From an uncultured virus (IMG/VR IMGVR_UViG_3300043568_000902) (lineage: Duplodnaviria; Heunggongvirae; Uroviricota; Caudoviricetes), in IMG/VR virus record IMGVR_UViG_3300043568_000902: a DNA stretch of 60,685 nt; one strand, written 5' to 3'. Made by a program: the position numbers and the translations under genes. Shown one piece after another: positions 1 to 58,545 of this stretch. The notes beneath the pieces are model-generated. The model saw only the letters and a program-made list of their open reading frames with translations, was not told where the DNA came from and searched no databases. Within the stretch, counting starts at the first letter, position 1. Each line of letters starts with the position of its first letter.

Positions 1-3000
1 AGAAAATCTAAGTTCATTGAGTTTGGAAAGCGCTACGATAAAGTAGTTACTTTATTTGAAGATATTGAGGACCCTAACTTTAAAAAAGGCCGTGAAGGTT
101 ATGATAGAAAAGGTAATGAGGCTTCATTAACAGAACTTGCTAATGAAAAAGTTATCTACTTAATTAGAAGTTTACACGGTATTAACCCAGATGGTTCAGA
201 AGTTTTAAATTCATTAGGCTTTAATAGTTTAATGGACTTCCCAATGGCTTGGAATAGATTAGCTAAAACCTTAGATGGTGCTAACTCTGTACAAGAAATG
301 TATAGAAGACTTGATAGCTCAAAAGAAGATTATCCATTTTTCCAAGAGCTTTTGCTTAAGTTAGGTAATCCAGATACACAAATGGATGCTTATTCTCAAA
401 GCATGTGGACATCATTCTTACAAGCATTTGGATTAAGTAGAGTACCGTTAATTGCAATGGTTGTTGACCAAAGCGATATCAAAGAAAAAGATGAGGACGG
501 TAAAGTAAGTGTAGTTGATGTTGAGTTCTCAGCTGTTGTAGGAGGTGCGTCCGTTGCGGATAAAAAAGTAGGTAGAGACTGGAGTGACCACTTTAAAACT
601 ACTACTAGCCGATTTATTAAACAAGACGTAGAGGGTAATAACTATTTAGATGTACCTGAGCTATTAAGTAAATATCCAAATGGTGTTTCAAAAACAGATA
701 GATGGGAGTTCTTTAAAGATATCGGCCTTAACTTTAGTAATAAAGATAAAATTAGACAAGAGTTAAATAGCTTAAGACACAATCCAGCTATTACATTCTT
801 CAATAGAATTATTGATTTATATAATGCATACGAAGAAGGGCGTGTAGAAAAGCCTATTATAATTCGCGATATTAAAGACATTGTAGCTGAAAGAGATTAT
901 AAGAACTTTGATGTAGTATCTTTAGCTACAGATTATAATACATTACAATCTATTGAAGCTAAGCACTCTGATGACTACTCAGACTTCATGGTACTTAACG
1001 CTGCCGGAGACGCGCAGTATGAGTTTATGCTGAATAGCACTCTTACTCAAATGATTAAAGAGTTAAATGATGCTCCTTCTTACAACGAGCTCATTTCTAA
1101 TCCTGAGATGAATCACTTATCAAGTGACCGTAATCCTTGGGCAAGTATTAATCCAAAGAGTAACAGAAAACGCTTAGTTACTTTATATGACATGTTTGAT
1201 ATGGCTGCCCCAGGTGGTCCAAAGAGAGCATTAAATCCTGAGTATGGTTCAACTGAAAAAGTTTCTATTGATATCAATAACATGGCTGGGGTATCATTTA
1301 CCATTAATGGAATTTCCAATACTGGTATTACTGCAGCCGATGCTGATGAGGTAACTAAAAGACTTAGTGACTTCCATGTAAGTACATTATATGGTTTACC
1401 AATGGGTACAACACCTGCGGATAAATCAACAATCTTAATGTATCATCTATCAAATAGAAAATACTACGTTAATCCTAAATATTTTGTAAGCAAGGAGTAT
1501 TCGGATAGAGGTAACTTAGATGCATACCAGATTATGCTAGGATACCTTGAGGGTGAATTAGATCGCATTTATCAAGTAAGCAATCTTGATGCAAACTCAC
1601 CAGAAGCCTTAGTACCCGTAGGTAAAAAGAAATATGGTGAAACAGGTAAAGAGTTTGTAATATTTGCGGACATGCTTTCAAAACCTACAAAGGACGCATT
1701 GATGGCTATTCCTGATGAGTATAAGCAAAACTTACGTGACTACTTAGATACCGAAGAAGGTGCTACACTCAATAGAGATATCTATAGGGATATCATGAAG
1801 AAGTACTTCCCTGCTAAAGTTGCGGAGTTTGATTCTAGACTAAGAGAAGCTGAATATATTGATAATAATATTCATAGGAAGATCCGTGATTTAGCTGGCA
1901 ATAGAAGACTTAGCAAAGCAGATACTAGAGAGGCTGCTGTAAAAGCACACGTAATTAATAGCTTTATTCACAATGTGGAAACTGTGTTATTATACCACGG
2001 CGATCCTGCATTGTATAACATGGTTAAGGAAGACTTCCAAAAGCGTAATGCTGGTATTAATAGTACCGGGACATTCCCAAGAATAGATAGTGCTATGCTT
2101 AACTACATTAACAATGTAGCGTTTGGTAAAGATACTAGAGGTAAAGATAAAGTTCGTTACTCTAATAGTTCTTGGTATACAGGACAACCTGTTAAAAAAG
2201 TATTTACTAATCAAATGCGTTCAGCGGTTCTTCAGGATGTAGACACGCAAAGCTTATACTTGAATATTCTTAAAGAGAAACTTAGAGAGTCATTACTTAC
2301 TAGTCCAGCTTACAAGAACAAGAAATTATCTGCAAGTCAAATAAATGATATTATAGATAAAAAACTTGAGCCTTATACTGAGATGAAAGAAGGTGATGGT
2401 CAAGGTTGGATAACTTTTGATGCTTACAAAGCGCTTTCAATTGAGCTTGACTCATGGTCTGACCAACAAGAAGTTCTTTATAGAAAAATATTAAATAGAG
2501 AATATGTATCACCGTCTGCAATAATCGAGTTCTTCCCGGTTTTGAAAATGCAATATTGGGGACCACTAGCTAACAAAGGTTTGCCTTTAACAGCTTTTCA
2601 TAAATTCTCTATTGCACCTTTAGTACCATCAACTATTGAAAATACAGACTTAGAGGTATTACAAAACAAGCTTGTAGAACAAGGTTTTGAGTATGCATTG
2701 TTTAGTTCAGGATCTAAGGTTTCTACTATTACTCCTGATGGTGTACCAGATAAGTTCTATAAAGATGCATCGGATGCTAAAAATCGTGATCTAGCAATTA
2801 CTGAAGAAGACTATAAGTTTACTCCAAATGATATTTTCTTAAAGTATTTTAAGAAGCAGGTTGAGATTGCACCTACCTATAAGGGTAAAGTTATATTCTC
2901 TACTCAGTTGCGTAAGCTTATTGAAACTGGTTTAATGGAAATGGGTATACCTGTTGATTTTAAACCAGAAGAATCTTATGACCAAAGAAAAGCAAAATGG

Positions 3001-6000
3001 AATAAGGTTAAAGCTAAATGGAATTCATTAAGTGAAAGCCAAAAGCTAAAGACTTCTAATAACTATACAAAGCTTGTAAACTTTGAGAAGAGCTTGGATA
3101 AGTTAATGGAGAAAAAGAAGCAGGATCTTCTTGATGAAATGGGATGGAGCTACGATGATAAAGGTGTACCAACTGGCCCACTAGATAAGCTATTTAATTT
3201 CATTGAGAGACAATTAACTAAACAAGATATTGCGGACCATCAACTTGACTTCTTACAAGTAACAAAGTCTGGTAAACTCAAGCATTCCCTAGATATATCC
3301 TTAGCTGCTGCCCAGATTGAAAAGGTATTAATCTCTATAGTAAATAAAAGATTAATTAAACAGAAGGTATTAGGAGAAGCATTGATTCAAGTATCTGGTG
3401 CTGGTTATACAAACCGTGAATTCTTTAATGAAAACAAAGATGCTCCACTTGAAACACGCCTTAAAGTACTTGGAACTAACGACTTACCTTTTTATACACC
3501 AGGTAAAGCAGCTAAAGTAAAAATTGCGTTGCAAGGTAAATTCTTAAACTTATTAAGATTGCCTGAGGTAAATGCAATGGTGAGAGAAAATTTAGATAAA
3601 GGAGAACCGCTTACACATTTGCAAGCACTTAACAAGCTTATCAAAACTGATGAGTGGTTAAATGAGGGTGATAATAGAGCAATGGTTTCTATGGCTGCAG
3701 TACGTATTCCAGTACAAGGTCTAAACTCTATGGAGGCTTTTGAAGTATATGAGTTCTTACCAGAAGGTGGTAATCAAATTATACTTCCTGCAGAGATTGT
3801 AGCTAAGTCCGGAGGTGACTTTGACATTGATAAGCTTACGTCATTTATGCCTGATATTGAGGTAAATGAAAATGGTGACGTGGTCCTTAAAGATACCCCG
3901 GAAAATGAAGTATTGCGTAACATGACTGATATTATCACAATGCCTGAAAACTTTGTGGATCTTATCACACCTAACGCAACAGATATTCTTTCACCTCTTG
4001 CTAAAGAACTAGCATCAAAAGTTAGACCTTATGATCCATTGCAAAATGTATTTGGTGAAAGAGGTGATAACATTAGCGGAACTAGAATATTTGAGATAGA
4101 ATATAATATATATAAGCACGGATCTAATAATATCGGTAAGAAGACATTGGGTCAAGGTGCCGTAGATAATACTTACAACGTTATCTTTAATACAGTAGGT
4201 GCTTACTTAGAGCCAGAGTACCTAGCTGGTAATAGAACAAAATTTAAGAGACGTCAAGAGATATATCTAAACCACAACACTCTAGATGTAAATGATGAAA
4301 AAGCAATTTCATTATCTAACATCTATGACGCAGATGGTGTAAATAAAATATCTGAAGTTATTTCCCAGCTTATCAATGGTTGGGTGGATATCGCTAGAGA
4401 TCCTTGGATCTTTGATATTCAAGGTAACAACTTTGTTGCGCCGTCATTATTATTAATGATTCAAGCTGGTGTACCAATTGCAGATGCAGTATACTTTGCA
4501 TCACAACCTATTGTTAGAGAGTACATTTCTCAGCAGAAGAAAGCAAGATCAGCATTTGCTAATGCATTGGGTATCAATTTAGATAACCCTAACTTCTATA
4601 GATCTGAAGCTAGAAAAACTATGTTAAAGAATTTTCCTCAAACTGAAGAATTGTTTAGCGTAAATAAAAAAACTGGCGAAGAGTATATAAAACCTGAGTC
4701 AATGTACACAGGCATGACAGAGTTTGCTGAGCCAAAGAGAGATGAAATCTTTAACTTAGAGTACTTTAAAGACAATGTTACTACACCAGTAAGCTATAAT
4801 GAAAATGAGTTAGCACTGTTGTTACACTTTATGGACATTGAAGATATGTCTAAGGTAATTACATCTGTTAAGCGGACAACTAACTTTGATACAGCTACAT
4901 CTTCCAGCCTATTCCAAAATGCTCAAAGATCTGCAAACGCAGAAATTCTTGCATCAGATGGTAGAATGGGTAAAGACATTGTATCTAAAATTCTTAATGA
5001 GTCTTCTATATCGAGTTTTGTAGTTACGGATTTTATGCGTGATGTATACAAAAACTTATTTAGCGTTAGAGACTCAAAGACCATGAACGATTTTATCTTA
5101 GGTAAACTAGCTCGTGGTATCAATAAGGATGTTGAAGATACTTTTGATGATATAGACATGTTTGTGAGCCAGTTTAGAAATGACACTTTAATGTTCATGT
5201 TCCAAAACTATGTTAGAAACCTAGATCTAGATTCAGTTAAAACCTATAAGAGTGCGGTTGTGGATAGCTATGCCATGAGCGTAAGACCTACAATTGAGTC
5301 TCCAATTGGTGTTTTTGTAAAAGAGGGTGTGGTTAAACGTAAAATAAAAGGTGTAAGTAAAGATGTATTACGCCCAGTAGTTTACGTTGATAGAGCAAGA
5401 TTAGCTGAGGAGTATGGAAACTTACAATCAGGTCAAGACTTGTTTACAGAAGACATGCCTATTGCACCAGTTAAAAAGAAAATGTTCCAAAACATCCGTG
5501 AGTATGCACGCTTTGTTATGGAGCGTGAGTACTTGAGATTTGTATTAAAGCCTGAGAATGTTGTAACAGATTCAAAGTTTGTTGAATATGCTAACCAGTT
5601 TGCTGAAGAAGGTGCATATGAAAATGAAAGTGAACAAGACTTTGAAGACCGTGTATCAGTAGATGCTTATGAGCACACACTTAGAGACATGGCTTTTGAA
5701 AATACTTTTAACCATTACTATATGTTTAAGAGTAAGAAGAACTATGCTCAAAGATTAGCCGATATCAAAAAGACTTATCCTGAGTTAGAGGAGGCATTCC
5801 CTGTATTAAAATTCTTGAGCTACGATAAGAGCAAGAAAGGTGAATACATTATCAAGTTTAGAACATCTAAGATTGATGTTGATAGGGTGAATAAGTTCTA
5901 CGAGGATATCACAGACTTGTCTAACGCTAGCACACTTCACGGTATTCTTGCAAATGTTCCATCTAATGAAGTAAATGATATTGCAAAGTTCTTCGAAAAC

Positions 6001-6873
6001 TTACCAATGTATACAATGTTTACTACAGGATTTGCTACTAAAGGTGAGTATGCAATAGCTCAGATAATGCCAAACAAGAGACTTACCGGAGTATTAACTA
6101 ACATGTTAAACTACTTCGATAAGGAAAAGCTAATGACTTGGGATCTATTTAACAACTACTTCAAGAAGTTCGTTAATGTAAACGGCTTTAAGAATAGTGC
6201 TAATAGATATAAAATCAAAAACTATACTTTAGACCAACCTTTGTGGAAAGCGTCTAAGAATAAAAAAGCTGAATTATTTGGAGAGTATGGTAACATATCT
6301 ACAGGAAGAGATAACTTTGGTAAACCCGTTTATTCTTCAACATTTGAAGAATCAAATAAGTTATTAGAAGATATCACCACCCTTTTAAATAATAGAAGCA
6401 ACTATGCCTTTATTTTTAACGGGGCAACTAAAGCTTTGGGTATTCCAAAAAGTGGTTCCGATGGTGTATTAGCTGACCCAAATCTTGGAGCATCTAATGT
6501 ATTTGGTATTGCTGCAGCTAAAACATATCAAAAAGTACCATCTGCCCGCATGACGGATGACACATATGATGACAACGTAGAGGTTATAGAAAAATCTTTA
6601 AATGATCTTGAAGATTACTTGAAGTCTGAAAAGCTTAAACCTTTCTGGAATTCATATGGCTACGGTCAATATATGATTGGTGCAGATCAGTATGGTGAAA
6701 ATATAGATGCAACTAAAGCAAGAGCCCCTAAAACTTTTGTATATTTGTCTAAGAGGCTTTATGAAAAGTTTGGCTATGTTAATCCAAACTACAACATTAC
6801 AAAGGAAGGCCGATCTTTTGTGAAAGTAAGTACTAAAGATGTTATTCAAAAAATTAAAGAGTGTTTAAAATAA
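1..6873 (+). CDS. Virion-associated two-barrel RNA polymerase (crAss-like), 5'-truncated by the window
   Basis: Frame is open from base 1, so the Met at 232 is internal. Contains RIPVQGLNSM and the catalytic KSGGDFDIDKL (DxDxD at 3817-3831) typical of crAss-like virion RNAPs; >2290 aa. Confidence 0.9.
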   Translation, partial: RKSKFIEFGKRYDKVVTLFEDIEDPNFKKGREGYDRKGNEASLTELANEKVIYLIRSLHGINPDGSEVLNSLGFNSLMDFPMAWNRLAKTLDGANSVQEMYRRLDSSKEDYPFFQELLLKLGNPDTQMDAYSQSMWTSFLQAFGLSRVPLIAMVVDQSDIKEKDEDGKVSVVDVEFSAVVGGASVADKKVGRDWSDHFKTTTSRFIKQDVEGNNYLDVPELLSKYPNGVSKTDRWEFFKDIGLNFSNKDKIRQELNSLRHNPAITFFNRIIDLYNAYEEGRVEKPIIIRDIKDIVAERDYKNFDVVSLATDYNTLQSIEAKHSDDYSDFMVLNAAGDAQYEFMLNSTLTQMIKELNDAPSYNELISNPEMNHLSSDRNPWASINPKSNRKRLVTLYDMFDMAAPGGPKRALNPEYGSTEKVSIDINNMAGVSFTINGISNTGITAADADEVTKRLSDFHVSTLYGLPMGTTPADKSTILMYHLSNRKYYVNPKYFVSKEYSDRGNLDAYQIMLGYLEGELDRIYQVSNLDANSPEALVPVGKKKYGETGKEFVIFADMLSKPTKDALMAIPDEYKQNLRDYLDTEEGATLNRDIYRDIMKKYFPAKVAEFDSRLREAEYIDNNIHRKIRDLAGNRRLSKADTREAAVKAHVINSFIHNVETVLLYHGDPALYNMVKEDFQKRNAGINSTGTFPRIDSAMLNYINNVAFGKDTRGKDKVRYSNSSWYTGQPVKKVFTNQMRSAVLQDVDTQSLYLNILKEKLRESLLTSPAYKNKKLSASQINDIIDKKLEPYTEMKEGDGQGWITFDAYKALSIELDSWSDQQEVLYRKILNREYVSPSAIIEFFPVLKMQYWGPLANKGLPLTAFHKFSIAPLVPSTIENTDLEVLQNKLVEQGFEYALFSSGSKVSTITPDGVPDKFYKDASDAKNRDLAITEEDYKFTPNDIFLKYFKKQVEIAPTYKGKVIFSTQLRKLIETGLMEMGIPVDFKPEESYDQRKAKWNKVKAKWNSLSESQKLKTSNNYTKLVNFEKSLDKLMEKKKQDLLDEMGWSYDDKGVPTGPLDKLFNFIERQLTKQDIADHQLDFLQVTKSGKLKHSLDISLAAAQIEKVLISIVNKRLIKQKVLGEALIQVSGAGYTNREFFNENKDAPLETRLKVLGTNDLPFYTPGKAAKVKIALQGKFLNLLRLPEVNAMVRENLDKGEPLTHLQALNKLIKTDEWLNEGDNRAMVSMAAVRIPVQGLNSMEAFEVYEFLPEGGNQIILPAEIVAKSGGDFDIDKLTSFMPDIEVNENGDVVLKDTPENEVLRNMTDIITMPENFVDLITPNATDILSPLAKELASKVRPYDPLQNVFGERGDNISGTRIFEIEYNIYKHGSNNIGKKTLGQGAVDNTYNVIFNTVGAYLEPEYLAGNRTKFKRRQEIYLNHNTLDVNDEKAISLSNIYDADGVNKISEVISQLINGWVDIARDPWIFDIQGNNFVAPSLLLMIQAGVPIADAVYFASQPIVREYISQQKKARSAFANALGINLDNPNFYRSEARKTMLKNFPQTEELFSVNKKTGEEYIKPESMYTGMTEFAEPKRDEIFNLEYFKDNVTTPVSYNENELALLLHFMDIEDMSKVITSVKRTTNFDTATSSSLFQNAQRSANAEILASDGRMGKDIVSKILNESSISSFVVTDFMRDVYKNLFSVRDSKTMNDFILGKLARGINKDVEDTFDDIDMFVSQFRNDTLMFMFQNYVRNLDLDSVKTYKSAVVDSYAMSVRPTIESPIGVFVKEGVVKRKIKGVSKDVLRPVVYVDRARLAEEYGNLQSGQDLFTEDMPIAPVKKKMFQNIREYARFVMEREYLRFVLKPENVVTDSKFVEYANQFAEEGAYENESEQDFEDRVSVDAYEHTLRDMAFENTFNHYYMFKSKKNYAQRLADIKKTYPELEEAFPVLKFLSYDKSKKGEYIIKFRTSKIDVDRVNKFYEDITDLSNASTLHGILANVPSNEVNDIAKFFENLPMYTMFTTGFATKGEYAIAQIMPNKRLTGVLTNMLNYFDKEKLMTWDLFNNYFKKFVNVNGFKNSANRYKIKNYTLDQPLWKASKNKKAELFGEYGNISTGRDNFGKPVYSSTFEESNKLLEDITTLLNNRSNYAFIFNGATKALGIPKSGSDGVLADPNLGASNVFGIAAAKTYQKVPSARMTDDTYDDNVEVIEKSLNDLEDYLKSEKLKPFWNSYGYGQYMIGADQYGENIDATKARAPKTFVYLSKRLYEKFGYVNPNYNITKEGRSFVKVSTKDVIQKIKECLK

Positions 6874-14599: not shown

Positions 14600-15145
14600 A
14601 TGAAACAATACACTTACAAAGAACTAGAAGCAAAATTTGTTGAACTAGGTTACCAATGGCCAACTCTTCACTTGGTGGGAGTAAGATCTGCCGCTAATGA
14701 GAAGAACAAGTTTGATGATACCATGTATCTTGTAAACGGTCTTATCATGAGTCCTTACAGTTGCACTACTAATCCTGGTACACACTGGTTAAAGAACTTG
14801 CTTAATCCTAAAGGAGCAGCATTACTTAAACCAGGACAGTATGTTGATGCTTACCAATTAGGATTACACCAAGGTAAGTATGAAGCGTTAGTACAACGTA
14901 AACCTGTAACTGTATACCGTGATGGTGACAAGGATGATGTAGCTGAAGAGACCTCTACAGAACAAACAGGTTTATTTGGTATTAACATTCACCGTGCTAA
15001 TCCTAATGCTGTATCTAGCATTATAGATAAGTGGTCAGCAGGATGTCAAGTACTTAATGATCCTAAGCAATATGCTACATTGATTGCAGCTTGTAAAGCA
15101 TCAGGTAAGAAGGCATTTACTTATACCCTATTAAGAGAGTTCTAG
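14600..15145 (+). CDS. Putative endolysin, L,D-transpeptidase (YkuD)-like Cys/His fold
   Basis: GINIHRA...WSAGCQV (H...SxGC) motif; upstream of holin- and spanin-like genes. Confidence 0.65.
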   Translation: MKQYTYKELEAKFVELGYQWPTLHLVGVRSAANEKNKFDDTMYLVNGLIMSPYSCTTNPGTHWLKNLLNPKGAALLKPGQYVDAYQLGLHQGKYEALVQRKPVTVYRDGDKDDVAEETSTEQTGLFGINIHRANPNAVSSIIDKWSAGCQVLNDPKQYATLIAACKASGKKAFTYTLLREF

Positions 15146-15897
15146 TGAAAAACTTATCAAAAGAAGAGCTGCTCAGTAGATTAGAAGCAATTAACAGAAG
15201 TAACGCTATTATCTACTTTGATCTCAATGGATACATCCTAGGGGTGAATCCTATATTCTTAAAAGCAATGGGCTTTCAAGAAAATGAGCATGCTCAACTA
15301 ATTGGTAAGCATCATAGCATTTTTGTAGACTATAACTATTCAAAATCTGAGGAGTATAAAAAGTTCTGGGACACACTAAGAGAGGGTAAGTTTTTTGAAG
15401 GAGAGTTTGAAAGAAAAAAAATAGACGGGGCTCCCATTTACTTACAAGCTACATACAATCCTATTTTAGATGAAAGCGGTACTATAACTAAAATAATGAA
15501 GATTGCTACTGACATTACACCTATGGTAAATAGTAAAAATACAGTAGATGCTCTTTCAAAAGATTTGCAGATTGAGTTAAAAAAATCACAGGATCTTAAA
15601 AATTCAATAGAGATAGAAAAGGATGCAGCTTTGAATGACTTGGATATAGTAATGAAGAAAAGTCAAAGTGAGTTAATAAAAGTCATTGTTAAAGTTGCGT
15701 TGTCCGTTATAGTAGGAGTTGGGGTTATTACAACAATACTATATTGGATGGCAATAGTTATGAGCAAAGACACACAAATAATTGGTTCAACTTGGAGTAA
15801 TATGTTTAGTGTCTTATTAACAAATGCCTTTTCAATAGTTGGAACTATTATGGGAATCAAGTATGCTACTCAAGAAGGGAGTAAAGAAAAAAAATAA
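15145..15897 (+). CDS. PAS-domain + coiled-coil + 2-TM membrane protein
   Basis: N-terminal PAS/PAC resembling cytoplasmic chemoreceptor PAS repeats (IIYFDLNG..N..FL..MG..LIGKHHSIF..YKKFW..L..G..GEFER..G..IYLQATYNPI.D..G...KIATDIT). Two hydrophobic C-terminal helices. GTG start overlaps the endolysin TAG. Confidence 0.85.
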   Translation: MKNLSKEELLSRLEAINRSNAIIYFDLNGYILGVNPIFLKAMGFQENEHAQLIGKHHSIFVDYNYSKSEEYKKFWDTLREGKFFEGEFERKKIDGAPIYLQATYNPILDESGTITKIMKIATDITPMVNSKNTVDALSKDLQIELKKSQDLKNSIEIEKDAALNDLDIVMKKSQSELIKVIVKVALSVIVGVGVITTILYWMAIVMSKDTQIIGSTWSNMFSVLLTNAFSIVGTIMGIKYATQEGSKEKK

Positions 15898-52211: not shown

Positions 52212-52588
52212 GCACATACTACAGAATGAAGAGAACCAAACAACTAACTTGTTGTGGCCTACCTTTCTCGTGAGACTTTTATTGTCTCGTGCATTGTATT
52301 TGTTTTTTACAGTGCAGATTCATTCTTTAATGTGCTAAATGCTCTTATGTTAAACAGAATAGTTGTTTAACCTAGTTTAATTGTGTAGTTAAATAGTGCT
52401 GAACTATCCTTCACTAACATAAGAGCAGGTTTGATTATCTAATATCCTAGATTTAGAAGACACGGCAACGAAGCCCTGGTAGAATTGTTATCTACATCTT
52501 CAGATAATCAGTGGTTGTAAAGATACAGAATGCGTTTTAACTTACCATAGTTTTATTTATAGTGCTGTATACATTCTTCCCTTTACAA
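52212..52588 (-). ncRNA. Array of three repeated structured RNAs (Y-RNA-like candidates)
   Basis: Units 52212-52335, 52340-52427, 52515-52588 share AGRATR..C(A/T)GCACT...YATTCTGT in nested stems; G-U pairs work on the - strand. Confidence 0.7.
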
Positions 52589-52590
52589 TA

Positions 52591-52806
52591 TCAATAGTCG
52601 TCTTCGTCTAACATCTCGTTAAACTCGTCTTCCATAAAGTTGGCGGTGATCCCATCCACCCTACTAATAGGGTTAATAGGAAGACCAAGAACCAGTGCTT
52701 CATAGTAATTAATTACCTGAATAACACTGATTCCTGATAATACTTTGCCGTCAAGTAAGTTAGTAAACTTCTCAGAGGTCTTTATCTTAGCAAGATTAGC
52801 GTTCAT
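52591..52806 (-). CDS. Hypothetical protein
   Basis: 71-aa ORF. Confidence 0.6.
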   Translation of the reverse strand: MNANLAKIKTSEKFTNLLDGKVLSGISVIQVINYYEALVLGLPINPISRVDGITANFMEDEFNEMLDEDDY

Positions 52807-52807
52807 C

Positions 52808-53170
52808 TTAATTGGTTAAAAGAGTGTATAAATACTCATTGTCTTGCCAATTGAACTTAAACTTTAAGGATAAGTCATTAGCAATTTGATCAATGCTGGT
52901 ATCACCTGCATCCATACGTTCTCTACCTAACAAATAAGCGTCGTGCATTTGAGGATATACATCCCCTAAACAGGTATAGTAACCACGTTCATATGCTTCT
53001 ACACGATTATTAACCATTACTTGCTCAAAATCTGTGTCAATAGGGCCATCTTCAATAAGATTACATTCTCTTATTATAGATTTATTACGAAACACTTCAC
53101 CGCTTGATATTGTGGCAATACATATTACCACGGCTACAAGCATGCCTACCGCAAAGGATTTAATGTCCAT
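52808..53170 (-). CDS. Membrane-anchored hypothetical protein
   Basis: N-terminal TM. Confidence 0.65.
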   Translation of the reverse strand: MDIKSFAVGMLVAVVICIATISSGEVFRNKSIIRECNLIEDGPIDTDFEQVMVNNRVEAYERGYYTCLGDVYPQMHDAYLLGRERMDAGDTSIDQIANDLSLKFKFNWQDNEYLYTLLTN

Positions 53171-53243
53171 AGTTATAAGGTTTAAGTTAATACAAGTTAT
53201 ATAGGACAGCCGGGATAAAAATCGTAAAATCCCGGCTTCCTAC

Positions 53244-53432
53244 CTATTCCAACTCACCAGCTTGACAAAGGTTATCATCATAGATAAAGACACCAGTCTC
53301 TATATACTCCAACACCTCACCTTCGCAAGCATACTCAATAACAGAACTCTCAGCAGTATGTATGGTATACAAACCATCTACCCTCTCAACCTTACCGGTT
53401 AAAAGGTACATTAACAAAATCAATTTACTCAT
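53244..53432 (-). CDS. Hypothetical protein
   Basis: 62-aa ORF with A-rich leader. Confidence 0.55.
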   Translation of the reverse strand: MSKLILLMYLLTGKVERVDGLYTIHTAESSVIEYACEGEVLEYIETGVFIYDDNLCQAGELE

Positions 53433-53663
53433 TGTATAAGTATTAAAGGGTTAAACACACTAATAACAAATGGCCAGGTTCTCACCCCGGCCTTATCCCC
53501 CATTCTGCTATATCACAAGACAGACCCAGGGACACATAAAGCCTTGGTACTACACCTAAATTCCCGTTTATGTAGTGTTAGCTTCATTAATTGACAATAG
53601 GGGAACAAGCCGCCCAATTCTACTTATTGTTTAGTCAATCAAATCTACCATAGGAACCAAAGA

Positions 53664-53800
53664 CTCTGTACCACTCTGCATTCAGTTATAATAGTGTATT
53701 AGCTTCCAACGAGGTCTTACCTCTTCAGTAGAAGGTCTGCGAAATACACTATTACAACTGCTTACCCTTGTGAAGTAAGTTATGATGCATTAATACAAAG
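53664..53800 (-). ncRNA. Twister-like self-cleaving ribozyme with long P5
   Basis: P1 CUUUGUAU/GUACAGAG, UAA, P2 UGCA/UGCA, P4 CUUAC/GUAAG, L4 UUCACAAGG, 3' GAGUG giving a CAC:GUG pseudoknot. Confidence 0.72.
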
Positions 53801-53954
53801 GGACCGTGCTCGCAAGCATCATTGTCCCTTTAGCTATCTAGTACGCGTCCATATGCGTACCCAATGTACAATATCACAGATTGTTAAGAATACCTGAGTG
53901 GGGTGTTAGCTCTTACACTAACACCCTCATACTCAAGTAGTTAGCCCACCTTTG

Positions 53955-54341
53955 TTAAAGGTCAGCTACATCCTTCTTCTCAACCTTCTTGGCTCCAGTT
54001 GCAGCACCTCTGCTACCCCCAGCTACCATCTTCGCAGCAAGCTTATCGGCTAAGCTTTGCCCGAAATTACCACCGTATTGCTCTGCTAAAGCAACCTGCA
54101 TATCCATCTCTGTTGTGTCAGGGATGATACGCCCGTCCTGCGTGGTTAAACTTGGACAACTCTCCCCTACATAACGTGTAGAGAAGAACAACGGAGCACC
54201 ATTGTCATCTTCTACAAGATAACTACCGGCTTGCTCGCGGTATTGGTCAAGCTCCTCGGCTTTACCTTTCACGGTGTATACAAACACCAACTTGCCAGTT
54301 TCTTTTTTGCGGTACTGGCGCACCTTCTCAAACTTTGCCAT
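53955..54341 (-). CDS. Early protein, paralog of 54790-55209
   Basis: Shared FVY.V.G..E.LD.Y...G......NG.PL.F..R..GESC and QVALAEQYGGNFGQSLAD+LA.K. Confidence 0.8.
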   Translation of the reverse strand: MAKFEKVRQYRKKETGKLVFVYTVKGKAEELDQYREQAGSYLVEDDNGAPLFFSTRYVGESCPSLTTQDGRIIPDTTEMDMQVALAEQYGGNFGQSLADKLAAKMVAGGSRGAATGAKKVEKKDVADL

Positions 54342-54416
54342 AGGCTTTAATTGATTGGTTTTTAATTAGTTAACATTACCTTAGCTCCATTACCCCATAT
54401 GACTACGGGAAATAAT

Positions 54417-54508
54417 CGAGCGTAGCGAAGATTATGGGTATATAGAAATTAACGAGCGAAGCGAGTAAGCGGAGCGAAGCGGAGCTAAAAAAAGCGAGCG
54501 AAGCGAGC
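54417..54508 (+). repeat. Cluster of GAGCG(A/T)AGCG mini-hairpin repeats
   Basis: CGAGCGTAGCGA, CGAGCGAAGCGAG, GCGGAGCGAAGCGGAGC, GCGAGCGAAGCGAGC; more copies at 55276-55290, 55302-55316 and ~56384-56399. Confidence 0.85.
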
Positions 54509-54630
54509 TAAGAATAAGATATGGGTATATAGGAATCCAAGGGTAAAAACTTTACAACTTAATGATAATGAGCGTGTTGGTCACGCGGCCCCGTGGGAAA
54601 ACATCCATACTAGGATTCCAAGAATGCGTG

Positions 54631-54660
54631 CATCCGTGTACATCCGTGTACATACGTGTA
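54631..54660. repeat. 10-bp tandem repeat x3
   Basis: CATCCGTGTA CATCCGTGTA CATACGTGTA. Confidence 0.85.
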
Positions 54661-54789
54661 TACTTGCTTCCTATATATATGTACACACTCACAATAGCAT
54701 CCTAGTGCTATAGCAAAAAGGGTATATAGAACTTAAACGAAGTTTAAAACCCACGAGTGTGAACTCGTGGGTGTAGGTGCAGGTCCTGC

Positions 54790-55209
54790 TTACAGGTCAC
54801 CTGGCTTCTTCTTGGAAGAAGTCTTGGTGTCTGTTGCAGGACGAGCAGTTGGGGTTTGCGACTTGGTCACAAGTTTGCTGGCCAATCGGTCAGCTAAACT
54901 TTGGCCAAAGTTGCCCCCATACTGCTCCGCAAGTGCGACTTGTATGTCAAGCGCGGAAGTGTCTGGGTACCAGGCACTTTCGTCTTGCTTGACAACAAGC
55001 TCGCACGACTCGCCGGCGAATCTTTGCGTAAAGTACAATGGTTCACCATTGTCACTTTCGCGATAGAATTCGCCCTGCGTTTCGGCGTAATGGTCCAAAG
55101 ATTCCTTTGGGCCACTTACGGCGTAAACGAAGGTTAGGCGAGGGCGCGCACCGGCGATCTTACTCGCTTTGCGATAAGAGCGCTGAAAAGATAGTTTTAA
55201 ATTTTTCAT
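54790..55209 (-). CDS. Early protein, paralog of 53955-54341
   Basis: 139 aa; near-identical QVALAEQYGGNFGQSLAD block. Confidence 0.8.
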   Translation of the reverse strand: MKNLKLSFQRSYRKASKIAGARPRLTFVYAVSGPKESLDHYAETQGEFYRESDNGEPLYFTQRFAGESCELVVKQDESAWYPDTSALDIQVALAEQYGGNFGQSLADRLASKLVTKSQTPTARPATDTKTSSKKKPGDL

Positions 55210-55232
55210 AAAATTTGAAATTAGATTTTCAA

Positions 55233-55273
55233 GGTATAATGGGTATTAAATAAAAAAACTTGCGAAGCAAGTT
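55233..55273 (-). promoter_or_regulatory. Putative phage-RNAP early promoter module (GGGTAT + hairpin on template strand)
   Basis: GTATAATGGGTATTAAA then AACTTGC-GAA-GCAAGTT; the module recurs before each early gene. Confidence 0.6.
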
Positions 55274-55365
55274 CCGCGAGCGAAGCGAGCACAACGCACG
55301 CGCGAGCGCAGCGAGCAGCCGTTGCTTGCGCAAAGGAAGAGCCGAAGCTCTTCCGCGCAAAGACT

Positions 55366-55692
55366 TTAAATTTGATTAAAGTCAAGCGTACCACGCCATT
55401 CTTGTAAAGACATGGTTTCGGTACGCGACCACGCTTTGGGGTAATCTTTCCTAAAGGTTACCTCATCGGACCATTTATTATAGCCTTGGAACAAGAGCGA
55501 ATAATGGTCAAGCGTGTCGTCATCTTTCTTGATGGTATGATGCCTATGATAACGCGGTTCAAGATCCTCATCTTGAAGTGGGTTAACATAAGTACCATCA
55601 AGAATAGCCATAGCAACCAATGGGTTGCTGTGTGCGTTGATGACGTCTAATAAATCTGCGAACGCGATTTGAATTTTGATTGGTTCTACCAT
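55366..55692 (-). CDS. Early hypothetical protein
   Basis: Likely start MVEPIK at 55692. Confidence 0.7.
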   Translation of the reverse strand: MVEPIKIQIAFADLLDVINAHSNPLVAMAILDGTYVNPLQDEDLEPRYHRHHTIKKDDDTLDHYSLLFQGYNKWSDEVTFRKDYPKAWSRTETMSLQEWRGTLDFNQI

Positions 55693-55726
55693 GATAAAAT
55701 TTAAATTAAGTGAAACTGATTTATTA

Positions 55727-55774
55727 GTATAATGGGTATTAAAGTAAAAAAACAACAAGAGCCAAAGCTCTTGT
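55727..55774 (-). promoter_or_regulatory. Putative early promoter module
   Basis: GTATAATGGGTATTAAA (17 bp identical to the 55234 copy) plus ACAAGAGC-CAAA-GCTCTTGT hairpin. Confidence 0.6.
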
Positions 55775-55802
55775 GTTTAGTACCCGAAAGGCAAGGATGT
55801 AA

Positions 55803-55976
55803 TCAATTTTCATTGATTACAAACTTGTCGTCTTCGGTAAGTACAAGCAGTGCGCGCTCAATAGCGCGTACTTCTTGTGCAACTTCCCGAAGTTCGGGAA
55901 AGGCCTTGCCCAATCCCTTGGGCAAAGTTATTTCGCGATCGATATGTAGGATCGCGAAAGGACGTGGTCTTTTCAT
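55803..55976 (-). CDS. 57-aa early protein
   Basis: Manually translated: MKRPRPFAILHIDREITLPKGLGKAFPELREVAQEVRAIERALLVLTEDDKFVINEN; preceded by a GGGTAT module. Confidence 0.65.
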   Translation of the reverse strand: MKRPRPFAILHIDREITLPKGLGKAFPELREVAQEVRAIERALLVLTEDDKFVINEN

Positions 55977-56009
55977 AGTAAATCGATTTTATGAGATTTG
56001 CTATGATAT

Positions 56010-56053
56010 TGGGTATTATGTTAAAAAAGAAAAACAACTCCGAAGAGTTGTTT
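56010..56053 (-). promoter_or_regulatory. Putative early promoter module
   Basis: TGGGTATT, A-run, AAACAACTC-CGAA-GAGTTGTTT hairpin. Confidence 0.55.
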
Positions 56054-56069
56054 TGCTTAATGAAGAAGG

Positions 56070-56252
56070 TTAAGCCTTCTTCATATCTCGTAGTTGATAG
56101 TATATCAAGTACGAGATGAATGCTGCGCAGAAGATGAGGAAGCCATTTACGTATGGCTTACCACTTATGTGCGGCAACATGTTAGTAATGAAGATTAGCG
56201 CAATGGCATCAAGCCATGCGATGATTGTAATGAATAACATGAGATTTTTCAT
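56070..56252 (-). CDS. 60-aa 2-TM early membrane protein
   Basis: Start MKNLML at 56252; two hydrophobic helices. Confidence 0.65.
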   Translation of the reverse strand: MKNLMLFITIIAWLDAIALIFITNMLPHISGKPYVNGFLIFCAAFISYLIYYQLRDMKKA

Positions 56253-56281
56253 AATGATTAAATAATTATTATGAAAAATAC

Positions 56282-56310
56282 TGGGTATCTTACACAAGCG
56301 TAGCTTGTGT
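56282..56310 (-). promoter_or_regulatory. Putative early promoter module
   Basis: TGGGTATCT plus ACACAAGC-GTA-GCTTGTGT hairpin. Confidence 0.55.
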
Positions 56311-56409
56311 TCCAAGCGAGCGAGCCCCAGCTCGCGAGCCCAGCGAGCACTGTGTCTTGCACAGCAAGCACATGTGTGAGCACGCGAGCGCAGCGAGCGC
56401 ACCAAGCAT

Positions 56410-57300
56410 TCAGGCTATGTTACTCATAGCCAATAACATTTTCTTTGTAGAAAATATTATTCCTGGTGCCTGCCTAATAGGCCATACCCCTTCTAAGAAT
56501 TTGACGGGGGTGGCCCCCAAGCGCGAACGCACCGGGGGGATGCTTGGTATACATCCCTTACATCGCCTCCCACATTAAATTTCCCCTACCACCATCCCCC
56601 GGGGGGTGTCCCCACCTAACCTTACTACCGGGGGTAGGTTGATTGTCTTATTCCCTAGGGGGGTATATGTAGGAGAACCATAAGTGTCAAGTTTATTGCA
56701 CAAAAAACTGGACATTCCCCCCTATATGCCCCTACATATAAATGTGGGGTAATACGGTAATACTATATGCAAGTGCATGCAAAATCTGGAAAAATTCATG
56801 CAAAATTATAGGGGGTAATTCGAAGAACTTCCGAGTTTGGCACCTTTTCGTTACGGAGTTTGGCATCTATAAGTCGCCAATACTCCTAAAATTTTCCAGT
56901 AATAGCGGATTAGCGCCAGGGGGTTGGGGATTATTTTCCACTAAAAGCCTGATTCTGTAGATTATTTTCCACAATGCTTGTCGCAAAAGTTTACTATACT
57001 TGCGACTAAGTACCGACCAAGTAACCGTACAAGTACCCCTCCAGTACCCATCAAGCTTGTCACAAAAGTTTAACATATTTGTGACAGATGTGGTTTATAA
57101 CATCTATCTCATATCAATGGTGCCAGGTTTATCCTGACATCTATACTATAAAACGTACCCGGAGAGGTACGGAGTATACTCTCTATACATGATAATGTCC
57201 CTTACAGGGTATAAAAATGAGGTTTTTTGTTTCTTATAAACCACATTATAGTATGGTATACTATGCATCTCGGTACAAAACTATGGCTTTTGCATATTAA
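56410..57300. other. Long non-coding region with G/C tracts and many imperfect palindromes (candidate genome terminus/origin)
   Basis: No credible ORF; sits between the early - block and the late + block. Confidence 0.5.
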
Positions 57301-57306
57301 AACATG

Positions 57307-57873
57307 TTATAATGTGGTTTGCCTAGCTCTTTTTCCAATTACTTTTGTCTTAAGATCTACCGCTTTAAGTGCCAATACACATTTCTGAATAACAGCTAGA
57401 TTTACATTATCTCCCTTTTCCAATAGAGATAGTGTAGATCTGGATACTCCCATTAATTCGGATAGCTGTTGTTGGGTTAACTTTCTACATAATCTTTCTC
57501 TTTTAAGGATAGAAGACATACTATGTATAATTCTAAATAAGTCATCAAATGCTTTTGCATCATCGTCTGACCTTGTTTCTACTAGCTCTTCTGGCATTAG
57601 CATTATATTAAGCAAGCTGGGATTAATGTTGTAGTAGTAATCTATCCAGTATCTTTCTCTATCTGGTAAATCATTAATATCTTTAACTTCTTCTATGATG
57701 TCTATCTTAGGGTAAAGCCAATTCTCCTCCAGCATTTTAACCCAGTCATTAACGTGTGAAGAATGTGAGTTAGTTAAATGTTGTAGGGGTCTTTTTTCAC
57801 CTACTGTGCTTTTGCCTATGTACTGATAGACATCGTTTCTTGGATCTCGTAGTCCGTAGATTATGTTTTTCAT
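57307..57873 (-). CDS. GIY-YIG nuclease fused to XRE-type HTH
   Basis: IYGL.DPR...YIGKS..R...H..E.YWI..N; LTQQQLSELMGVSRSTLSLLEKG. TACCTTTG box at 57898-57905. Confidence 0.8.
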   Translation of the reverse strand: MKNIIYGLRDPRNDVYQYIGKSTVGEKRPLQHLTNSHSSHVNDWVKMLEENWLYPKIDIIEEVKDINDLPDRERYWIDYYYNINPSLLNIMLMPEELVETRSDDDAKAFDDLFRIIHSMSSILKRERLCRKLTQQQLSELMGVSRSTLSLLEKGDNVNLAVIQKCVLALKAVDLKTKVIGKRARQTTL

Positions 57874-58012
57874 ATTTAGTATGTATTAGATATAATACAA
57901 AGGTATGAAATATAATACACATAAACAACACCTCTCGTAACATTTTTATATATATTTTTGTTACGAACCATACTTTAGTGTGGTAACAATTTTACGCTAT
58001 ATTTGTTACGAG

Positions 58013-58213
58013 ATGCTACAGTTTATTACCTACACCCTACGGTGGATATCTTCTAACCTAGCTATTCCTTTCTGGACAGTTGGGCACATCCACCTTAGTA
58101 TTAATGTCTACGAGGATCTGGTAGAGATAGCTTCTTCTATAGGTATGAACCTTATAGTAGCTGTAGGATTCTATATGGAATGGCGAGAGCATAAAAAAAA
58201 TTCTTGCCCGTAA
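58013..58213 (+). CDS. Small membrane protein
   Basis: Start MLQFIT after a TATATTTG box (57998-58005); two hydrophobic segments. Confidence 0.6.
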   Translation: MLQFITYTLRWISSNLAIPFWTVGHIHLSINVYEDLVEIASSIGMNLIVAVGFYMEWREHKKNSCP

Positions 58214-58254
58214 CAAATTCTTGTATATATTTGTCACAACTAAACCAATGAACT

Positions 58255-58545
58255 ATGTCATTATTTAAACAACTACGTGGTAAACGCGTAATGATTCAGA
58301 AGCCTGAGTCTGAGAATAAATCCTTAATTGAACTTACTCCAGAAGTAGAAGCACAACTTGAGAAAGAGGCTATTGCAAAATGGACTCGTCTTAAAGTTTA
58401 TGCTGTTGGTACAGATGTTACCGATGTTGTTGCTGGAGATGAGGTGTACATTACACCAGGTGTTTTAGCAGCAGCTGAGATTTTTAAAGTTGAAGAGGAA
58501 GTGTTTATCATTGTACCGGATCACGCGGTAGCAGTTATATACTAA
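58255..58545 (+). CDS. groES: GroES-like co-chaperonin
   Basis: L.G.RV.I..P..V.AVG.DV..V..GDEV; TATATTTG box at 58226-58233. Confidence 0.7.
   Translation: MSLFKQLRGKRVMIQKPESENKSLIELTPEVEAQLEKEAIAKWTRLKVYAVGTDVTDVVAGDEVYITPGVLAAAEIFKVEEEVFIIVPDHAVAVIY

Follow-up and report, generated by a model that had tools for sequence, protein, structure and literature searches.

A conserved box and template-strand mini-hairpins upstream of small genes: candidate early promoters in a crAss-like phage that encodes a gp66-type virion RNA polymerase

The DNA analysed here, referred to as the window, is the whole 60,685 nt record of an uncultured Caudoviricetes virus (IMG/VR IMGVR_UViG_3300043568_000902), which, as judged from its sequence, is a crAss-like phage carrying a virion RNA polymerase (RNAP) of the gp66 type. 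At the head of its leftward arm (~18-56 kb), which encodes a polymerase, a primase, a helicase and a TROVE-like gene, lies an array of five small genes, gE, gD, gC, gB and gA, with starts at 56252, 55976, 55692, 55209 and 54341, respectively, and gaps of 90-450 nt. Each is preceded by a box, ATAC-N5-AT on the coding strand, and mini-hairpins stand among the boxes on the template strand. We propose, with a probability of roughly 0.6, that these genes are one-gene early cassettes whose phage promoters would be read by the injected RNAP, with the box as the main determinant and the hairpin as an aid to strand opening.

Genes, boxes and terminator-like hairpins of the array are on the minus strand, and mini-hairpins on the plus (template) strand. 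The first gene, gE (56070..56252), encodes a hydrophobic protein of 60 amino acids (aa) and has its box at 56278..56288, 36 nt upstream of the ATG, beside a hairpin of 8 bp with a GTA loop centred 13 nt from the box (56292..56310); an additional hairpin with tandem G.A pairs and a GCA loop lies further out (56383..56399). Behind gE come an intrinsic-terminator-like hairpin with a UUCG loop and U-tract (56031..56054), the box of gD (56006..56016), 40 nt upstream of its ATG and without a GNA triloop at the usual distance, and gD itself (55803..55976, 57 aa). A second such terminator-like hairpin with U-tract (55755..55774) follows gD and precedes the box of gC (55729..55739), which has the top position weight matrix (PWM) score of the window, lies 47 nt upstream of the ATG and has no adjoining GNA triloop; gC (55366..55692) encodes 108 aa, and neither gC nor gD was assigned a function. 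Between gC and gB there are two GCGAGC-GNA-GCGAGC hairpins with tandem G.A pairs (55276..55316), a 7 bp hairpin with a GAA loop on the template strand that is also terminator-like on the mRNA strand (55257..55273), and the box of gB (55236..55246), 19 nt from that loop centre and 37 nt upstream of the ATG of gB (54790..55209, 139 aa).

The hairpin after gB (54749..54772) is terminator-like and distinct from the mini-hairpin beyond it; its tail has 4 T compared with ~7-10 T in most relatives, and it was not called by the terminator scan. The mini-hairpin (54733..54747, 6 bp, GAA loop) is centred 15 nt from the ATAC of an atypical copy that lacks the AT and heads ~270 nt of non-coding DNA (54715..54725), while a second atypical copy (54518..54528), with ATAC, no AT at +9/+10 and no GNA hairpin, is preceded by a GGAWTCC near-palindrome (54532-54538). 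A group of three C(GNA)G hairpins on the template strand, tandem G.A pairs being present in two (54452..54509), then leads to the box of gA (54431..54441), which is 18 nt from the closest loop centre and 100 nt upstream of the ATG, and downstream of this box is a further template-strand hairpin with a GTA loop, tandem G.A pairs and one bulge (54414..54433, structure drawn by eye), a place that holds a hairpin in relatives too, with paired changes. The last gene, gA (53955..54341, 128 aa), is a paralog of gB (~50% identity) and falls in no PHROG or Pfam family. Upstream of the array, a possible eighth box without GGG or GNA hairpin is found at 56540..56550, where ATAC is present in 7 of 8 aligned loci.

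The first-pass annotation had taken the hexamer GGGTAT as the element. Its seven plus-strand copies (54436, 54523, 54720, 55241, 55734, 56011 and 56283) are all where it had placed them, four of them 32, 42, 35 and 31 nt upstream of the minus-strand ATGs at 55209, 55692, 55976 and 56252, respectively; a 17-mer reported from two sites is the same sequence at both, and the three hairpins quoted were all located. The copy at 54436 also heads a gene, lying 95 nt from the start of gA, and those at 54720 and 54523 head no ORF (open reading frame) that is present in relatives. In 54300-56400, a region picked post hoc, there are seven copies, whereas 2000 dinucleotide shuffles gave 0.32 on average and never more than 4, and the 38 copies in the whole window, against 22.4 expected, were reached in 1 of 100 shuffles. 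A hairpin was said to follow most copies closely, which is so for six of the seven, starting 3-15 nt past the hexamer, but not at 54523; as to its type, a C(GNA)G triloop adjoins only four (54436, 54720, 55241 and 56283), and at 55734 and 56011 there is instead a terminator with a 4-nt loop and a U-tract. Bacteroidetes use TAnnTTTG as the housekeeping promoter box, and, as had been noted, this is missing from the 110 nt upstream of all five array genes.

We collected relatives with a search using the gA/gB alignment, which gave 93 loci (15 viral and 78 metagenome) and was more productive than the TROVE-like gene as bait (62 loci, few reaching the array). Across 29 close loci the retained sequence is ATAC-N5-AT, and GGG is restricted to a sub-clade of the window, L079, L080, L081 and L098 and is lost elsewhere; the motif search in relatives that had been suggested as a check did yield a conserved element, but not the hexamer. 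In these loci, 79 of the 84 distinct starts of homologous genes have the box upstream, compared with 1 of 64 control ORFs of the window, and since the sequences are related and the box-to-ATG windows (24-48 nt, and 75-108 nt for gA) were fixed post hoc, these counts describe conservation and are not independent trials. TAnnTTTG was found upstream of 1/84 starts against 8/64 control ORFs, namely those at 58255 and 57873 and six more.

The box PWM is circular at the positions used in site picking, and the upstream counts and a hairpin-first search serve as the tests. We counted 104 distinct template hairpins of four or more Watson-Crick pairs; in 53 of them an ATAC lies at 11-16 nt from the centre of the loop, compared with 1-8 in ten other 6-nt windows. 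AT at +9/+10 accompanies 45 of these 53, against a background of 84/730 and 4/80 in unrelated viral loci sharing the short hairpin and ATAC pattern. Stem base and box are separated by 6-7 nt in 48 of the 53; this spacer varies in sequence but not in length, and the ends of the box also stay constant. Two relatives covered over their whole length each have the composite pattern three times, only in the array and on the forward strand, with 0 in the control. Gene-by-gene reading of 12 loci placed a box at 75 of 109 mechanically called ORFs, 70 of the 75 with a hairpin under a loop rule broadened post hoc; many of the 34 boxless ORFs overlap real genes and appear spurious. As read from these alignments, the conserved unit on the coding strand is a U-tract terminator, a mini-hairpin, 6-7 nt, the box, ~24-48 nt and the ATG. 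The short hairpin and ATAC pattern in viral contigs gave mostly lone chance matches, with at least 3 hairpins in 3 of 80 loci. Separately, in an 85.6 kb viral contig that we did not connect with the family (L167), a stretch of 3 kb contains seven C(GNA)G hairpins, all on one strand.

The mini-hairpins are strictly on the template strand, as first proposed, with a C-G closing pair and a purine-N-A loop. Within 53.9-56.45 kb there are 8 C(GNA)G hairpins of at least 4 Watson-Crick pairs on the plus strand and 0 on the minus strand, compared with 2 and 1, respectively, in the remaining 58 kb. Around gA/gB in 17 close loci (including the window and one near-identical locus) the ratio is 138 template to 0 coding, and in the other 58 loci 43 to 4, with 5 of the 43 coming from two actually close loci. 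Beside 98 distinct boxes the template loops are GAA (22), GTA (18), GGA (5), GCA (4), A-N-A (9), AAC (4), G-N-N-A (3), TT (4) and other (5), with none at 24, and among 62 C-G-closed triloops beside a box a purine is first in 62 and A last in 58. This freedom of the middle base between constrained flanks is what is expected of a sheared pair, and the mini-hairpin appears to act as DNA and not as RNA. In DNA, loops of the types A-N-A, AAC and TT are stable as well. One known DNA mini-hairpin of very high stability, GCGNAGC, is missed by standard models, and within GCNNNGC only GNA gave a mini-hairpin (PMC13037366; here and below, papers are cited for the portions of their text available to us). 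The modal distance from loop centre to ATAC is 12 nt (27 of 111 hairpins). A tandem-G.A repeat of the kind seen in the window is common in other viral contigs, often small ones, with at least 130 stretches containing it.

The gene for the predicted reader, which the first-pass annotation had rightly called a two-barrel virion RNAP, occupies 1..6873 on the plus strand with an open 5' end and has DFDID, the DFD[I/V]D signature of Crassvirales virion RNAPs, at frame residues 1273-1277; terminase, portal and capsid genes were not identified in the window. With tblastn this frame matched 37 phage records, including phi14:2 g066 (E 3e-7), and among the 30 matches listed all were crAss-type. To our knowledge, all crAss-like phages carry an RNAP of this type. 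Homologs were present in four of four relative records searched, with frames of 3323 and 2863 aa in the complete relatives G002 and G003, respectively, and no Sigma70_r2 domain was found in five of five. Identity to the window RNAP is 64% in relatives sharing the box and 43-52% in more distant ones (5 records, 3 of them fragments without a match). In distant relatives with 45-52% RNAP identity a CAACCC box is found in 35 of 75 upstream regions of the same genes, with 1 on the opposite strand, so that the box sequence appears to shift with RNAP divergence. The gp66 protein of phi14:2 transcribes single-stranded DNA (ssDNA) well and double-stranded DNA poorly and produces the early RNAs, while middle as well as late genes of crAss phages use host RNAP (10.1101/2020.03.07.982082). 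Furthermore, a TROVE-domain gene is counted among the early genes of crAss001 (PMC8375218), from which early expression of the window array may fairly be inferred. Searching the array region against annotated phages with blastn gave no match, the window has no tRNA or tmRNA, and an Rfam scan of 52500-58300 returned a single weak chance match, to cspA (17 bits against 78). The nearest of the records compared (G001) is an 18.7 kb fragment that does not include the array region. Directly after the virion-protein genes, at 15145-15897, is a PAS-domain protein (Pfam PAS_9, E 5.6e-11).

The suggestion of one transcription unit per gene, with terminator-like hairpins, also agrees with what we see, since every array gene belongs to a separate unit that a terminator precedes, and three window hairpins score as terminators. 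In most relatives a classic U-tract terminator stands apart from the mini-hairpin, upstream of it. The A-run, which had been likened to that of N4 promoters, is therefore this terminator's U-tract, and most relatives have it on the upstream side of the mini-hairpin. By eye, in the 12 loci, ~11 different small genes bear the unit and their number and order change, and, as at PeSL junctions, a terminator and a promoter-like box are joined between small variable genes.

Of the encoded proteins, gA and gB form a tandem pair in many aquatic relatives and have a confident alpha/beta structural model with a predicted local distance difference test score (pLDDT) of 81.6 (78 sequences) and >90 for residues 1-80. 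Searches gave no Pfam, PHROG or Atlas match and no Foldseek match at E<=0.001 in PDB or BFVD, with a best Z of 3.9 in a wide search; as to a helper role like that of single-stranded DNA-binding protein (SSB), structure and family searches recognised no nucleic-acid-binding fold. The gap between gB and gA (54345-54790 in the window) is 413-542 nt long in 18 loci and has no common ORF; it opens with a hairpin and an ATAC without AT and has 1-4 GGAWTCC near-palindromes, including 2 of the window's 3, making it a candidate small RNA or protein-binding site. On the other side of the array, 56450-57100 is a non-coding block that separates the divergent arms and shows strong conservation across 8 aligned loci, with G/C-tract hairpins, the repeated words GTGGAAAAT and GCCAAACTC and a pair of 38-nt direct repeats, and is a candidate genome end, packaging or origin region; contig ends of relatives were seen to vary and fix no genome terminus. 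Past this block, a GIY-YIG and helix-turn-helix gene (57307-57873) with its own host-type box at 57905 is found at that place in some relatives and is absent in others. RNA contigs of run X1 pile up to a depth of 38-500 near 52370-52550, within an intergenic stretch (52230-52650) that has no tRNA and falls mostly beyond the Rfam-scanned range, with gaps and joints, and may come from another organism.

Under the reading we favour, each cassette would have its own promoter, isolated from the preceding gene by an intrinsic terminator, and the reader would be the injected gp66-type RNAP with its preference for single-stranded templates. As the genome enters, mini-hairpins would fold on the template strand alone and keep the AT-rich spacer and box open, and the RNAP would load on this open DNA and start at or near the box, with the hairpin helping but not absolutely needed. 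The preference of gp66 for ssDNA makes it plausible that a template-only hairpin beside an AT-rich box supplies such open template. Common terminator-promoter junctions would also permit the swapping of cassettes. The parts of this reading differ in strength: the box is very probably an early promoter, and probably read by the virion RNAP, since it changes with phage lineage and ignores the host consensus as fits a phage enzyme, while for a contribution of the hairpin to initiation we see the balance as only slightly favourable. Boxes without hairpins, the box of distant relatives and the lack of an array in phi14:2 and crAss001 point to the box as the more widely shared element and to the hairpin as a trait of the lineage.

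Several observations weigh against this reading, mostly against its hairpin. Three of the seven window copies (54523, 55734 and 56011) have no GNA triloop; at gC and gD, with the best boxes, the only hairpins are terminators at a distance of 14-15 nt, and at gA and gB the triloops are 18-19 nt from the box. Loop centres are 12-15 nt from ATAC in relatives and 13, 15, 18 and 19 nt in the window, 51 of the 104 distinct hairpins have no box nearby or lie on its downstream side, and the CAACCC-type boxes are, by eye, mostly without an adjoining hairpin. A hairpin at every promoter, as first envisaged, is thus not what we find. Some loops are AAA, ACA, AAC or TT, unlike the GNA-only rule in the available text of PMC13037366. 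At the sole orthologous site counted the stem is invariant in 13 of 15 rows and the window hairpin is out of register, which gives no covariation support; paired stem changes are seen only between different sites (third pair T-A in 37, C-G in 6 and A-T in 1 of 47). Nearest-neighbour DNA energies (ViennaRNA), which omit the GNA bonus and tandem G.A pairs, showed no template-strand advantage (for example -5.5 against -5.6 kcal/mol). RNA contigs from one run (share 0.05) cover parts of gA and gB and carry no start, strand or level. Furthermore, no template C(GNA)G hairpin near early genes and no array were found in 45 kb of phi14:2 (bases 1-30000 and 85000-100418), nor such an array in 27 kb of crAss001 (82000-102679 and 1-6000), and phi14:2 early transcripts have no common upstream motif detectable according to the available text of 10.1101/2020.03.07.982082.

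A bolder form of the idea is that a two-barrel (cellular-type) virion RNAP has converged on the N4 trick and requires an extruded template C(GNA)G mini-hairpin to open and recognise a bipartite ssDNA promoter, hairpin number per cassette tuning expression or template exposure during entry; we regard this as a tentative possibility, and a doubtful one. Strict N4 mimicry, in which the virion RNAP would bind the extruded hairpin and count a fixed distance to the start, leaving the box as initiation region, appears unlikely. It would explain the N4-like polarity and loop chemistry (C-G closing pair and sheared G.A; PMC4496689) and the narrow spacer, and the modal distance would place an N4-like +1, with the loop centre at -11, one base before ATAC. 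However, the distances spread in relatives and window alike, two good window boxes and most of those in distant relatives lack the hairpin, and the loop centre is free here, whereas N4 RNAP contacts -11G (PMC4496689). In addition, gp66 transcribes M13 ssDNA, which is without such promoters (10.1101/2020.03.07.982082).

It is also improbable, in our view, that the box is the promoter and the hairpins are used otherwise, to mark or protect the ssDNA template in ejection, exclude SSB, act as priming signals or bind a protein of the gA/gB type. Such roles would suit the arrays of 3-6 hairpins around the gA unit, one of them downstream of the gA box, and the wide occurrence of the tandem-G.A repeat; mini-hairpins are found at phage priming sites and are poorly bound by SSB (PMC13037366), and an AT-rich box is enough for the two-barrel virion RNAP of P23-45 (10.1101/2022.12.01.518664). 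They would leave unexplained why, over ~11 genes, the simple hairpin of 4 bp keeps a spacing of 6-7 nt to the box, which a general mark does not need, and, as said, no nucleic-acid-binding fold was recognised in gA.

Decidedly improbable is a promoter for host RNAP with an alternative sigma factor, or a host promoter flanked by a palindromic operator (TTGC-N3-GCAA) to which a dimeric regulator would bind. Any promoter could occupy this position upstream of genes, the inverted repeat is conserved chiefly as sequence, and host RNAP does serve the later crAss genes; yet TAnnTTTG is missing, sigma70-type matches are at chance (19 against 16.9), the box varies by phage lineage, and an operator has no need of a purine-N-A centre on one strand only. 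The plus-strand TATAAT of two copies, considered as an antisense -10 box, was rejected as it is not retained by relatives. That the repeats are mere terminator or recombination junctions from cassette duplication, or a travelling repeat, is very improbable, for although the cassettes are shuffled, common ancestry alone could explain the shared orientation and terminator scores were obtained for three hairpins, a gene that follows a strong terminator needs a promoter of its own, terminator and mini-hairpin are separate in relatives, and spacer length and box ends hold while spacer sequence varies.

Among known systems, phi14:2 has a homologous RNAP, small divergent-arm genes that head the replication arm and host-type promoters on the other arm, and differs in that no shared early motif was detectable, as described above. 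Its early arm (g113, L157:13915-14418) likewise opens with small genes, 100-200 nt gaps and C-rich upstream stretches. In the literature within view, which did not extend to subscription papers and preprint supplements, we found no paper defining a crAss early promoter, and no common early promoter is known for the model enzyme gp66. The array is a candidate for the promoter of such an injected RNAP, and its many natural variants of one short unit make box, spacer and hairpin separately testable with oligonucleotides. PeSL promoters serve host RNAP. The PeSL cassettes of T4-like phages resemble the array in their composite terminator-promoter junctions between small variable genes and in gene gain, loss and reordering, but the abstract names no template-strand DNA mini-hairpin (PMC4122927). 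P23-45 gp96, from a different phage group, is a two-barrel virion RNAP with AT-rich pre-early promoters, a motif that recurs upstream of many of the small genes that come first, and with many terminators (10.1101/2022.12.01.518664); the likeness is drawn without comparing motif sequences, and the available text of that paper has no mention of 'hairpin'.

The closest parallel in DNA structure is with N4 promoters P1-P3 (gp50; PMC4496689, PMC13434306), which have a template hairpin whose G-N-A loop is closed by a C-G pair, as at four of the seven window sites and with the strand bias of the close loci, upstream of the presumed start, an injected RNAP active on ssDNA and a location at the head of the early region. 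N4 gp50 is T7-like whereas the window RNAP is a two-barrel enzyme with DFDID, and stems in the window and relatives are mostly 4-6 bp, with a free loop centre, a distance that is not fixed and hairpins missing at some boxes. In place of the four-A ruler of N4 there is a mixed AT-rich spacer, and the array also differs in its separate box, which bears the conservation, and in having one unit per gene. If the hairpin is functional, structure-based recognition of ssDNA promoters would have evolved twice, in unrelated polymerase families.

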